The notes beneath the pieces are model-generated. The model saw only the letters and a program-made list of their open reading frames with translations, was not told the origin of the DNA and did not search any database. A stretch of DNA of 64,000 nucleotides. Source: Escherichia phage 92CQ. The DNA is taken from the sequence record PV682554.1; one strand, written 5' to 3'. Shown piece by piece: positions 9,093 through 12,617 of this stretch (positions within the stretch are counted from its first letter, which is position 1; the number at the start of each line of letters is the position of its first letter). The position numbers were made by a program, and so were the translations under genes.

Positions 9093-9359
9093 TTACTCCG
9101 CAATCTGAGCCATGAATTCACGTAGTTCAGAAAAACCTCCTACGTGGGTTAGCTGTTCACCATCTTCCACAAAAATCTGAGGAAATGTGCGTGGTAGAAC
9201 ACCTGTTTTCTCTAAAACCAGATTCTGAATCTGATCTAAAGAATAGTCTTCATCTAAGGTAAGGTATTTAAAATCCTGTTCACGCTGTTCTAGTAGAATC
9301 TTAGCGTTAGTGCAGAAAGGACAATTTGGTTTACCGTAGATAATAAAATTCATTTTCAC
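9093..9359 (-). CDS. glutaredoxin (NrdH/Grx-like)
   Basis: 88 aa, CPFC active site near N-terminus. Confidence 0.7.
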   Translation of the reverse strand: MKMNFIIYGKPNCPFCTNAKILLEQREQDFKYLTLDEDYSLDQIQNLVLEKTGVLPRTFPQIFVEDGEQLTHVGGFSELREFMAQIAE

Positions 9360-10186
9360 TCCTTGTTTAAAAGTATAGTTAAAGTTCTTACAATACCGCT
9401 ATCAACACTTCGCGGATTTAAAGTAGGATCTGTTTTTAAATAAGATGTTGCTGGTCTGACTGCTTTGGAATTATAGGTTGAAGCAGACACAGGATTAACT
9501 GTAACAGATAAATCTATAACAAGAAATATCTTTCGTGCAAAATCATACCAAGAAATATAATCTGCACCTGCATAGTGTACAATTTTACTGTTTACACCAT
9601 CTTTTACAAGTTTAAAAATTGTTTCTGCAAGATCAGGTGCATAAGTAGGACATGATAAATGATCACATACTACATTAAATTCTTTTTGACCACCGTTGTA
9701 GCGTTCCAACATAGTTTTCAAAAAGTTATGTCCAAATTCACTATAAACAGAAGCTGTTCTGATAATAAGTGCTGTAGGACAAACTGTTTGTACTAAAGTT
9801 TCACCTAATTGTTTACTGTAACCGTAGATGTTCAAGGGGTTTGTTTTACTATCTTCTGTGCCAGCAACATTCCCATCAAAAACATAATCTGTTGAAATAT
9901 GTACAAACTGTATCAGTAAATCATTACATGCTTTGGCAATGTTTGTTGCACCGTATGCATTAACATTTATACAGGTGTTAACATCTTCTTCAGCTTTATC
10001 TACTGCCGTGTAAGCCGCACAATTCACAACAACATCAGGCATATGCTGTACAAGACTATCCATAACATCTTTAAAGTTGGTAATGTCTACATCACTTGCT
10101 TCAATCAAAATAACATCTTCGGGCGCAACTTTTGCCAAAGACTGTCCTAATTGACCTTTTGAACCAAAGACTAAAAATTTTGTCAA
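9356..10186 (-). CDS. rmlD: dTDP-4-dehydrorhamnose reductase
   Basis: N-terminal Rossmann GSKGQLGQ; last gene of co-oriented rmlB-A-C-D block with 4-bp overlaps. Confidence 0.75.
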   Translation of the reverse strand: MTKFLVFGSKGQLGQSLAKVAPEDVILIEASDVDITNFKDVMDSLVQHMPDVVVNCAAYTAVDKAEEDVNTCINVNAYGATNIAKACNDLLIQFVHISTDYVFDGNVAGTEDSKTNPLNIYGYSKQLGETLVQTVCPTALIIRTASVYSEFGHNFLKTMLERYNGGQKEFNVVCDHLSCPTYAPDLAETIFKLVKDGVNSKIVHYAGADYISWYDFARKIFLVIDLSVTVNPVSASTYNSKAVRPATSYLKTDPTLNPRSVDSGIVRTLTILLNKE

Positions 10187-10737
10187 AATATGATCTCCTT
10201 TAGTGTTTTGGCTTCCTGATCTTTTTGTGACAAGATAGGTTTAAAATTAATATCATTAAAGATTAAATCAAAACCCCAATCTATATTGATATCTGGATCA
10301 TTCCACGCAAGACTACACTCTGAAGTCGGATCGTAATATTCTGTACATTTGTATTCAAAATCAGCAATATCGCTAATCACAACAAAGCCATGAGCGAAAC
10401 CAGGAGGAATCCAAAATTGTGTTTTATTCTTTTCAGATAAGAGAACACCTACCCATTCTCCAAATGTTGGACTACCAACCCTAATATCTACAGCAACATC
10501 ATAAACTTCACCACGAACACAACGTACTAACTTCCCTTGTGGGTTTTTCTTTTGAAAATGAAGCCCACGTAGAACTCCTCTGATAGAACGTGAATGGTTA
10601 TCTTGGACAAAGTTTTGTTTACCTATGTATTGATCATATAAAGCCTGATTAAAACTTTCTAAGAAAAAGCCACGTTCATCTCCATAAACGTCAGGTTGAA
10701 TGATCAACAAGTCTTCGATTTTTGTTGCTTGAATCAT
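10183..10737 (-). CDS. rmlC: dTDP-4-dehydrorhamnose 3,5-epimerase
   Basis: 184-aa cupin pattern (DERGFFLESF, RGLHFQ). Confidence 0.8.
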   Translation of the reverse strand: MIQATKIEDLLIIQPDVYGDERGFFLESFNQALYDQYIGKQNFVQDNHSRSIRGVLRGLHFQKKNPQGKLVRCVRGEVYDVAVDIRVGSPTFGEWVGVLLSEKNKTQFWIPPGFAHGFVVISDIADFEYKCTEYYDPTSECSLAWNDPDINIDWGFDLIFNDINFKPILSQKDQEAKTLKEIIF

Positions 10738-10749
10738 TTAATTCCCCTT

Positions 10750-11619
10750 TTATTTTAATTTAAGTAAATACTTACCGTAGTCTGTTTTACTTAAAACCTC
10801 TCCAGAACTTTTTACAGAATCTAAAGTAATCCATTCATTTTTAAAAGCAATCTCTTCTAGGCATGCAACCTTCATACCTTGTTGCTTCTCTATTGCATGA
10901 ACAAATTGAGATGCTTCCATAAGACTTTCATGTGTTCCTGTATCCAACCAAGTGAAACCTCTTCCTAGTTTACAGACACGTAAAGTCTTTTCTTTCCGGT
11001 ACATCTCATTTATATCTGTAATCTCTAACTCCCCTCTAGCAGAAGGTTTAACGCTTTTAGCTTTCTGTATAACAGAATTATCGTAAAAGTACAAGCCTGT
11101 AACTGCATAATTGCTTTTTGGTGTTTTTGGTTTTTCTTCAATACTCACCACTGTACCTTCAGAATCAAACTCAACAACACCAAATCTTTCAGGATCATTT
11201 ACGTGATACCCAAAGATATTAGCTCCACCATTCTTTTCAATATGTTCTTTAGCAGAATCTAAAATGCTACCAAAACTCTGACCAAAGAATAAATTATCAC
11301 CTAGCACAAGTGCTACAGAATCTTCACCAATAAAGTTCTCACCAATAATAAATGCTTCTGCTAAACCTTTTGGGCTATTCTGTACTGCATACTGTAGGGA
11401 AATACCAAAAGAAGAACCATCACCTAGAAGATTTACAAAATTAATTTGATCTTCTGGTGTTGTAATTATTAGTATTTCCCTAATTCCAGAAAGCATTAGG
11501 ACAGAGAGTGGATAATAAATCATAGGCTTATCATAAATTGGTAATAGTTGTTTACTAACCCCTTTAGTAACTGGGTAAAGTCTTGTTCCACTACCACCTG
11601 CTAAGATAATACCTTTCAT
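10750..11619 (-). CDS. rmlA: glucose-1-phosphate thymidylyltransferase
   Basis: [18 protein letters not shown] sugar-nucleotidyltransferase signature. Confidence 0.85.
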
Positions 11620-11627
11620 ACTCCTCC

Positions 11628-12617
11628 TTAAACTTTATTTTCCCACCACTCTTTGTTATCTACATACCAATCAATGGTTGAATAAAGTTTTTCTTCAAAT
11701 GTGCCTTTAGCTTTCCACCCTAATTCCTTTTCAATCTTATAAGGATTCACTTCGTATCTTAAATCATGTCCAGGTCTATCTGTAACCATCTCAATAAGGC
11801 TACAAGCATCTGTTTCAGATGGATACACCGCATCCATATAATCACAAATCATATAGATTACATCAATATTAGTTCTAGGGTTTCTGCTCCCAATATTATA
11901 TGTTTCTCCAGATTTGCCTTTAGTTACTACTAGGTGTAATGCTTCTGCGTGATCGTCAACGTATAACCAATCTCTTACTTGAAGACCATTGCCATAAACA
12001 GGGATTGGTTTATGCATCAAGATATTTGTTATCGTTTTAGGTATTAGTTTTTCTGGATGATGATATGCTCCAAAATTATTTGAACAATTTGTTATAACTG
12101 TCGGAATACCATAAGTACGATGCCACGCTCTTACCAAATGGTCGCTTGCAGCTTTAGATGCAGCATATGGACTACTTGGCTTATAAGGATTCTGTTCTGT
12201 AAACGGATAATCCCCTTCTTCCATATCACCATACACTTCATCTGTTGAAATATGATGAAACATTTTAAGATTTGATTTATCTCCCATTAAACGAACAGCT
12301 TCTAGAAGATTAAATGTTCCAACAATATTTGAATTTATAAAAACACTCGGTGATGCTATTGAATTATCTACGTGACTTTCTGCTGCAAGATGCATTATAT
12401 AATCTGGATTAACATCTGCCACAATCTTAGCAGTTAACTGAGCATTTGTCAAGTCAACACGACAAAACTTTACATTAGGTGTTTCTGATAAATTTCTAGG
12501 GTCTGAAGCGTAACCCCATTTATCTATAACGTAAATATCATTCTTAGTGTTTTTAGCCAGGAAACGAACTACCGCACTTCCAATAAAGCCTAAACCACCT
12601 GTTACTAAGTATTTCAT
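11628..12617 (-). CDS. rmlB: dTDP-glucose 4,6-dehydratase
   Basis: [14 protein letters not shown] Rossmann motif plus YAASKAASD (YxxxK) SDR catalytic motif. Confidence 0.85.

Follow-up and report, generated by a model that had tools for sequence, protein, structure and literature searches.

The 64,000-nt stretch of the Escherichia phage 92CQ genome analyzed here (sequence record PV682554.1; "the window") carries four contiguous open reading frames (ORFs) on its minus strand, reading from position 12617 to position 9356 in the order rmlB-A-C-D. Their products are the four enzymes of dTDP-L-rhamnose synthesis, and this study considers the identity and descent of the genes and the probable use of the sugar nucleotide. 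The phage is a Justusliebigvirus of the Stephanstirmvirinae (a phi92-like coliphage), and positions 9000 to 13000 of the window are 99.8% identical to Escherichia phage JohannJBalmer (Bas62). The genes and those adjoining them are as follows.

12614-12811, minus strand: small ORF upstream of rmlB, a 65-amino-acid (aa) hypothetical protein in Bas62 (upstream end approximate, from the Bas62 annotation)
11628-12617, minus strand: rmlB, dTDP-D-glucose 4,6-dehydratase, 329 aa (TIGR01181 equivalog; structure 1g1a)
10750-11619, minus strand: rmlA, glucose-1-phosphate thymidylyltransferase, 289 aa (TIGR01207 equivalog; structure 1iim)
10183-10737, minus strand: rmlC, dTDP-4-dehydrorhamnose 3,5-epimerase, 184 aa (TIGR01221 equivalog; PF00908; structure 1dzr)
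9356-10186, minus strand: rmlD, dTDP-4-dehydrorhamnose reductase, 276 aa, TTG start (TIGR01214 equivalog; PF04321; structure 3sc6)
9093-9353, minus strand: glutaredoxin gene (grx), directly downstream of rmlD (PF00462)

From the upstream ORF through rmlB, rmlA, rmlC, and rmlD to grx, the junctions measure -4, 8, 12, -4, and 2 nt, and a Shine-Dalgarno (SD) sequence precedes each gene. The ATG of rmlB (12617-12615) overlaps the TGA stop of the small ORF (12614-12616) as ATGA, behind the SD sequence aaggaga; the starts of rmlA (SD, taaggagg), rmlC, and grx (SD, aaggag) follow the preceding stop after 8, 12, and 2 nt, respectively, and the TTG start of rmlD shares 4 nt (TTGA) with the rmlC stop. 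Translational coupling of the rml genes is therefore reasonable. An earlier annotation made from the letters of the window alone (the original prediction) had described four contiguous, coupled minus-strand genes, and the ORF positions, junction lengths, and SD sites bear it out. The neighbors that it named were also found: the glutaredoxin gene, nrdB and nrdA (ORFs of the window upstream of the cluster), and, in the same gene neighborhood, thyX (verified by PF02511) and tdk (named from the Bas62 annotation). The grx product matches PF00462 at 45.4 bits and the NCBIfam glutaredoxin models below their cut-offs, and the small upstream ORF has no Pfam or NCBIfam match.

Identity of the four Rml enzymes

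The proteins were compared with NCBIfam equivalog models, each with its own curated cut-off, and the top match of every Rml protein was the corresponding model: RmlB matched TIGR01181 at 441.7 bits (cut-off, 365.1), RmlA matched TIGR01207 at 474.6 bits (cut-off, 360.65), RmlC matched TIGR01221 at 259.8 bits (cut-off, 155.75), and RmlD matched TIGR01214 at 254.9 bits (cut-off, 224.05). Pfam assignments agree, with RmlC matching PF00908 at 242 bits and RmlD matching PF04321 at 249 bits. This hidden Markov model (HMM) check, in which all four proteins exceed equivalog cut-offs, upholds the complete dTDP-L-rhamnose pathway of the original prediction.

The residues on which catalysis depends are retained as well. 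For RmlB, the closest solved structure is that of Salmonella enterica RmlB (1g1a; E, 1e-116; alignment near full length), and the STDEVYG and YAASK motifs (T133/D134/E135 and Y167/K171 in S. enterica numbering) are kept, with GGLGFIGS also present. RmlA aligns over its full length to S. enterica RmlA (1iim; E, 4e-125) and keeps the GGxGTRL loop, LGDN, EEKP, and WLDTGT, with D110, K162, and D225 conserved. In RmlC, whose closest structure is S. enterica RmlC (1dzr; E, 6e-64), H63, K73, and Y133 are conserved; D170, which lies outside the 1dzr alignment shown, is probably conserved too, since the protein has an LSQKD motif and matches TIGR01221 over its full length. RmlD aligns at near full length to Bacillus anthracis RmlD (3sc6; E, 5e-45) and keeps GxxGxxG, STDYVF, and YgysK. 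The hallmark motifs quoted for the four proteins in the original prediction are thus present, with catalytic residues aligned to solved structures. Generic epimerases or nucleotidyltransferases of another specificity would have spoken against it; the curated HMMs, the structure alignments, and the annotation deposited for >50 near-identical genomes support rml specificity. The identity and intactness of the enzymes are established at the level of sequence, and we hold with high confidence that the phage encodes a complete, intact RmlA/B/C/D set predicted to make dTDP-L-rhamnose independently of the host.

RmlD is the most divergent of the four enzymes by far, being 35 to 41% identical to the bacterial RmlDs compared and exceeding its cut-off by a margin of ~31 bits. 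This divergence would suit a Tll-type reductase of opposite stereospecificity, since Tll reductases are RmlD homologues acting on the same substrate, and the product would then be dTDP-6-deoxy-L-talose or another 6-deoxyhexose rather than L-rhamnose. Such a product appears improbable, as RmlD nevertheless lies above the curated equivalog cut-off, aligns at near full length to RmlD structures, and keeps the catalytic T/Y/K.

Descent of the rml cluster

The rml cluster as an observation is already known, being annotated in dozens of GenBank genomes and noted in the literature. Fifty-three phage records span at least 80% of positions 9000 to 13000, each at a nucleotide identity of at least 95% (98.3 to 99.8% among the 30 matches listed), and the four genes carry rhamnose-pathway labels in most annotated records among the matches listed. 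Olsen et al. (2020) called the location of rml within the region for DNA metabolism "peculiar" and speculated that hydroxymethylated nucleotides might be glycosylated (PMC7552041), Maffei et al. (2021) pointed out the cluster too (PMC8594841), and a 2024 paper restates the idea of a "rhamnose modification" (PMC10844046). We found no experimental work in the literature on the function of a phage rml cluster. The same cluster occurs in relatives throughout the Stephanstirmvirinae (phi92 gp064-067, Bas60-62, phAPEC8/ESCO5, and Klebsiella phage 05F01), of which 92CQ is a further member with no substantive difference. Five records labeled "Campylobacter phage" (host, C. jejuni) also bear these coliphage genes (MG065639, MG065645, MG065650, MG065656, and MG065689); four of them match the rml region at 98.4% nucleotide identity, and the fifth, B15, matches at the level of Phapecoctavirus (GT-B protein, 70% aa identity). 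Probably the C. jejuni host label is wrong or these phages are contaminants.

Phapecoctavirus ESCO5 and Klebsiella phage 05F01, a distant relative whose RmlC is only ~51% identical, share the gene string nrdA-nrdB-small ORFs-rmlB-A-C-D-grx-small ORF-endolysin-phoH in syntenic order, and both keep grx directly after rmlD. Among the three phage lineages, the proportion of nonsynonymous differences (pN) was 0.21 to 0.41 and that of synonymous differences (pS) was 0.64 to 0.87; since synonymous sites are saturated in every pairwise comparison, dN/dS ratios are unreliable, and only the relation pN << pS was used. A pN so far below a saturated pS indicates that the rml genes have been held intact by purifying selection through deep divergence. 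Synteny and substitution pattern place the nrdAB–rmlBACD–grx–endolysin–phoH module in the ancestor of the Stephanstirmvirinae and indicate purifying selection on it.

No bacterial RmlA is >69% identical to that of the phage when one genome per species is scanned (185,579 species genomes), the nearest coming from Raoultella, Snodgrassella, Thauera, Marinomonas, and Acinetobacter. In neighbor-joining trees with 80 bacterial loci, built without bootstrap, the RmlA, RmlB, and RmlD proteins of the three phage lineages each group together to the exclusion of the bacterial sequences; the RmlC tree gave no resolution. The order B-A-C-D occurs in 12 of the 80 bacterial loci, e.g., in Pseudomonas, Dickeya, Marinomonas, and Tatumella; that of E. 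coli and Salmonella is BDAC. Bacterial dTDP-L-rhamnose operons (rfb rmlBDAC; rmlBACD) hold the same four enzymes with the same catalytic residues, but the genes considered here stand in a lytic phage among nucleotide-metabolism genes and not in an O-antigen cluster, and their order is not that of the host. Recent capture from the host was rejected on three grounds, namely, this difference in order, the limit of 69% for bacterial RmlA, and a composition that is fully phage-like (GC content, 34.6%; GC content at third codon positions [GC3], 0.20 to 0.24). The distance of the nearest bacterial RmlA and the low GC3 argue for an old resident, and the simplest reading would be one old acquisition of rml in the subfamily ancestor.

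Between Justusliebigvirus and Phapecoctavirus the Rml proteins are 55 to 72% identical, and the flanking NrdB, PhoH, and endolysin are 84, 76, and 77% identical, respectively; RmlA and RmlB are almost equidistant among the three phage lineages. The higher divergence of the Rml proteins could reflect faster evolution or old recombination.

A glycosyltransferase module elsewhere in the genome

The original prediction recognized no glycosyltransferase (GT) in the window and proposed a search of the rest of the genome. No GT came up in the window here either, in the Bas62 annotation of the region corresponding to it or in Pfam searches with 10 larger unassigned ORFs. Four GT-type genes are found outside the window, ~70 kb from rml, in a cluster (bas62_0046 to bas62_0049 in Bas62) directly beside the primase/helicase and DNA polymerase genes.

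bas62_0049: 187 aa, GT-A-type (PHROGs glycosyltransferase)
bas62_0048: 228 aa, GT-A-type (PHROGs glycosyltransferase)
bas62_0047: 337 aa, GT4-type GT-B (PHROGs glycosyltransferase; weaker Pfam GT-B matches)
bas62_0046: 314 aa, GT4-type GT-B (PHROGs glycosyltransferase; Pfam Glyco_trans_1_2 above threshold)

The two GT-B proteins are paralogues (40% identity). A confident model of the 0048 type (predicted local distance difference test score [pLDDT], 88.6) is a minimal GT-A fold whose top match is the viral GT A197 of Sulfolobus turreted icosahedral virus (STIV), with the Listeria rhamnosyltransferase RmlT among its generic fold matches; template modeling (TM) scores of these matches are only 0.4 to 0.47. 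The 0046 type, modeled with very high confidence (pLDDT, 94.3), shows a GT-B fold of the GT4 type, with GlgM, BshA, MshA, PglA, GtfC, SdgB, and TarM as top matches (TM, 0.55 to 0.63). None of the four Bas62 GTs has a membrane segment (maximal Kyte-Doolittle value over 19 residues, ≤1.21) or an NCBIfam model, and a sequence search of the PDB with bas62_0048 gave nothing meaningful.

Several lines of evidence connect this module with rml. First, tblastn among sequenced phages gave 169 records for RmlC, 185 for bas62_0048, and 145 for bas62_0047; among Escherichia phage records only, the counts are 105, 106, and 106, with many accessions in common. Second, the distant phage 05F01 carries rmlBACD together with an 0049-like gene, an 0048-like gene, one GT-B gene, a small ORF, and primase-helicase, which dates both the rml and the GT modules to the subfamily ancestor. 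Third, the GT-B family adjoins modified-sugar-nucleotide genes in four of five phage contexts, rmlBACD being one of the four. A metagenomic phage has the same arrangement (0049-like … 0048-like, GT-B, small ORF, and primase/helicase) with a 4,6-dehydratase-like short-chain dehydrogenase/reductase (SDR; TIGR01181, 192.8 bits, below the cut-off) in place of the full rml set; another phage combines GT-B with a GT2, an SDR, a radical-SAM enzyme, and a DegT-type aminotransferase; and another combines it with a NeuD/PglB-type sugar acetyltransferase and a GT2, adjoining terminase. In the fifth context, a 36-kb phage, genes for an 0048-like GT-A (E, 4.5e-10) and a GT-B immediately precede those for the small terminase, portal, and capsid. 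The gene for the only named bacterial relative of the phage GT-B, from Burkholderia dolosa, follows genes for an inverse autotransporter of the intimin/invasin type and for an unassigned protein of 571 aa (L007:3025-8440), which suggests adhesin glycosylation at that locus.

By these gene neighborhoods, the pairing of GT-A with GT4 recurs among phages as a cassette, usually in the company of genes that serve unusual sugar nucleotides. Co-inheritance of the two modules in the subfamily is established, and the recurrence supports a supply of dTDP-rhamnose from rml to the GT module as donor, in which we have moderate confidence.

In three divergent lineages of phages, primase/helicase is always separated from the GT-B gene by an acidic small ORF of 83 to 89 aa that matches no family (L001:44281-44550, minus strand; L094:21126-21386; L009:7878-8129).

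The original prediction had also raised diversion of dTTP. In a purely metabolic role, the pathway would buffer or drain dTTP or glucose-1-phosphate, or its product would act as a regulator, and no glycosyl transfer would take place; the position of rml in the nrdAB/thyX/tdk/grx block is in keeping with this. A dTTP drain is counterintuitive, however, because the phage invests heavily in dTTP synthesis (ThyX, Tdk, and two ribonucleotide reductases). Four enzymes are moreover kept intact where one would do as a sink, and GT genes are co-inherited with the pathway. A metabolic role of this kind seems very improbable.

The acceptor of the sugar and its meaning for the phage

We predict the following. 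(i) Inside the infected cell, glucose-1-phosphate and dTTP would be converted to dTDP-L-rhamnose through RmlA, RmlB, RmlC, and RmlD in turn. (ii) The pathway would free the phage from dependence on the serotype of its host: rmlC and rmlD are present only in those E. coli strains that have rhamnose in the O-antigen, and these phages have a very broad host range, so that an rml set of their own would mean serotype independence. (iii) The dTDP-L-rhamnose would most probably be the donor for the phage's own soluble GTs (bas62_0046 to bas62_0049), which would build a rhamnose-containing glycoconjugate. (iv) The acceptor would not be bulk phage DNA; a protein, whether of the virion or not, or a glycan in soluble or lipid-linked form is likelier. 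The original prediction had rightly taken no side among virion protein, DNA, and cell surface. We infer both the use of dTDP-rhamnose by the GTs and the nature of the acceptor. The reading as a whole, i.e., dTDP-L-rhamnose made for the phage GT module and a glycoconjugate acceptor other than bulk DNA, has in our judgment about an even chance of being correct. Within it, an acceptor other than bulk DNA is held with moderate confidence, and a phage protein as acceptor is held with low confidence.

Hints of a protein or glycan acceptor come from three sides: protein-glycosylating enzymes are among the fold neighbors of the GT4 proteins, which include SdgB, GtfC, Gtf3, and PglA; the B. dolosa GT-B homologue follows an intimin/invasin gene; and the GT pair stands directly upstream of terminase/portal/capsid genes in two other phages. 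In addition, bas62_0048 matches GTs in 51 Mycobacterium phage records, including those of cluster F (25 to 30% identity; E, ~1e-7). According to secondary citations of Freeman 2023, the virion of the cluster F phage Che8 is reportedly glycosylated by its own GTs, of which gp110 is essential. A direct link to these virion GTs was sought and failed: in BLASTP, none of the four Bas62 GTs showed significant similarity to Che8 gp108-110 (best E, 0.13), and this line of evidence was downgraded for that reason. We suggest tentatively, and with clear reservation, that phi92-like and phAPEC8-like coliphages may decorate virion or other phage proteins with a rhamnose glycan, made in the cytoplasm by the GT-A/GT4 module from their own dTDP-rhamnose.

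DNA rhamnosylation is an idea put forward by Olsen et al. 2020 (PMC7552041). The GTs would place rhamnose on a modified base, as T4 places glucose on hydroxymethylcytosine, perhaps at a subset of sites only, which would leave the DNA open to common restriction enzymes. The setting is suggestive, with rml among nucleotide-metabolism genes and the GT module beside primase/helicase and DNA polymerase in three lineages, and bas62_0048 weakly matches both Pfam TAGT (23.3 bits; E, 6.8e-5) and PHROG-842, a beta-glucosyl-hydroxymethylcytosine alpha-glucosyltransferase (E, 5e-5). These are likenesses to the DNA glycosylation of T-even phages and TAGT systems. The TAGT match (PF20691) is under the gathering score of 27.5 and covers 60 residues of a generic nucleotide-binding/DxD segment only. 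No hydroxymethylase or TET-type enzyme was found in the Bas62 annotation and the 10 window ORFs scanned, a search that did not cover every small ORF; no TET/JBP dioxygenase of the kind adjacent to TAGT is annotated in the Bas62 genome; and the only thymidylate synthase homologue is ThyX (PF02511). The GT-B model is GT4-like, with neither T4 AGT nor BGT in its top 50 PDB matches, and the GT-A fold is generic. Finally, phi92-like phages are "exceptionally susceptible" to restriction-modification (RM) (PMC8594841), and Bas61 and Bas62 are restricted by Druantia III and ARMADA II, which are said to recognize unmodified DNA and to fail on the hypermodified DNA of T-even phages (PMC13463889). Taken together, ThyX with no hydroxymethylase or TET-type enzyme found, sub-threshold TAGT and PHROG matches, a non-T4 GT-B fold, and RM sensitivity make bulk DNA an unlikely acceptor. 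Because the GT module stands beside replication genes, rare or site-specific DNA modification stays a live rival, and we rate DNA rhamnosylation overall as quite unlikely; if the product were a rare DNA modification, the sugar would be of a type new to DNA.

The host envelope is another candidate. The GTs could use dTDP-rhamnose to alter lipopolysaccharide, O-antigen, enterobacterial common antigen (ECA), or another surface glycan; in a variant, RmlC and RmlD would drain dTDP-4-keto-6-deoxyglucose from ECA synthesis. Either would block superinfection or the adsorption of progeny to debris. These phages have many tailspikes for the recognition of surface glycans, synthesis of the 4-acetamido-4,6-dideoxy-D-galactose (Fuc4NAc) of ECA branches off at dTDP-4-keto-6-deoxyglucose, and similar gene sets in cyanophages are usually read as serving cell wall modification. 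The GT4/GT-A relatives PglA, TarM, TarP, and RmlT also include enzymes for undecaprenyl diphosphate-linked glycans and teichoic acids. However, no GT has a membrane segment, and no Gtr-type, flippase, polymerase, or ligase genes are annotated in Bas62, in contrast to O-antigen seroconversion by temperate phages with its membrane-embedded GtrA/GtrB/GtrC-type proteins. A strictly lytic cycle would in general leave little time for envelope turnover, and the homologous GT pairs of other phages adjoin packaging and capsid genes. Envelope remodeling and ECA drainage, considered jointly, appear rather unlikely; a change of this kind would be a new behavior for a strictly lytic phage.

Against a rhamnose-containing glycoconjugate built by the phage GT module, several points must be set in addition to the BLASTP result with Che8. 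The co-inheritance of rml and GTs in one subfamily may be phylogenetic inertia rather than functional coupling, and the 36-kb phage (L010) has no sugar-nucleotide gene in the 21 kb around its GT pair, so a donor other than rhamnose is conceivable. For the divergent RmlD, stereochemistry is assigned by the HMM only. The fold matches of the GTs, at low TM scores (0.4 to 0.63), cannot assign donor or acceptor; the sub-threshold TAGT match of bas62_0048 points towards DNA; and the vicinity of replication genes, which the GT module occupies in three lineages, is a common place for DNA-modification genes. In the papers found, statements that tie rml to GTs or to a product are speculation only.

Two further known systems resemble the proposed one. 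In the mycobacteriophages Che8, Corndog, and Myrna, soluble GTs of the phage modify capsid and tail-tube proteins, according to secondary citations, and giant viruses (Mimivirus and chloroviruses) likewise have their own 6-deoxyhexose nucleotide pathway and cytoplasmic GTs, independent of the host (reviewed in PMC9614988). The putative glycosylation in phi92-like phages, which is predicted from genes, differs from the former in the lack of significant similarity to gp108-110 and from the latter in the use of the bacterial dTDP route. To our knowledge, phages of the Che8, Corndog, and Myrna type carry no sugar-nucleotide pathway. The hosts of Mimivirus and chloroviruses are eukaryotic, the routes are those of UDP-L-rhamnose or GDP-sugars, and the glycans of the virions have been demonstrated by chemical means.

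As to expression, the rml genes lie inside a 32-kb co-directional minus-strand block of replication, recombination, and nucleotide genes that also includes the endolysin, whose placement after grx is kept in Phapecoctavirus. Two features follow grx:

8432-8932, minus strand: endolysin gene, 160 nt past grx, part of one co-directional gene string with nrdAB, rml, and grx
8410-8429: perfect GC-rich palindromic hairpin after the endolysin, the only strong terminator-like element nearby

A promoter and terminator consensus scan of positions 6000 to 18000 found 40 promoter-like sites (40.4 expected from a shuffled background) and 8 terminator-like sites (5.8 expected); with counts at background, it is uninformative on timing. 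The "early region" label given to the rml genes in the original prediction, and their expression together with nucleotide-metabolism genes, are not established.

Other genes of this genome deserve mention. The thymidylate synthase gene (18173-19144, minus strand) encodes a very divergent, long ThyX of 323 aa that matches PF02511 at only 37 bits (residues 22 to 170). Two "hypothetical" proteins (25103-25825 and 19154-19858, both minus strand) have weak nucleotide-metabolism signatures: one has an NTP pyrophosphohydrolase domain of the MazG/PRA-PH type (31 bits), and the other, encoded between thyX and tdk, has a sub-threshold NT5C deoxyribonucleotidase match. Adjoining genes named in Bas62 as phosphoribosyl pyrophosphate (PRPP) synthetase-like and nicotinamide phosphoribosyltransferase (32651-33544 and 33616-35349, both plus strand) form an NAD+ salvage pair; such pairs have been proposed to counter NAD-depleting defenses. 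Positions 36097 to 38873 (plus strand) hold 16 tRNA genes, two more than are annotated in the near-identical Bas62; among the 16 is a second tRNA-Ser(gct) (36957-37042), at a place that is annotated as a homing endonuclease in Bas62. Known by annotation name only are three consecutive genes, for a macrodomain protein, a phosphoribosyltransferase, and a HAD-like protein, and that for an intein-containing UvrD/Rep helicase, all outside the window (Bas62 record, 56867-59082 and 65272-68046), and a sirtuin gene just before or at the window start (Bas62 record, 103889-104701).

The existence of the pathway is not news, but its purpose can be addressed in a tractable model, Bas60-62 on E. coli K-12, for which rml and the co-inherited soluble GT module, recurring in unrelated phages beside other sugar-nucleotide genes, provide a concrete gene set for functional work. 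If phage proteins of the virion do carry a rhamnose glycan, they would represent the first case of virion glycosylation in a phage of Gram-negative bacteria, and the GT module would stand for a widespread glycosylation cassette in which phages exchange the genes for sugar supply. A glycan on the virion would also alter how these therapy-relevant phages of very broad host range are seen by antibodies and the environment.

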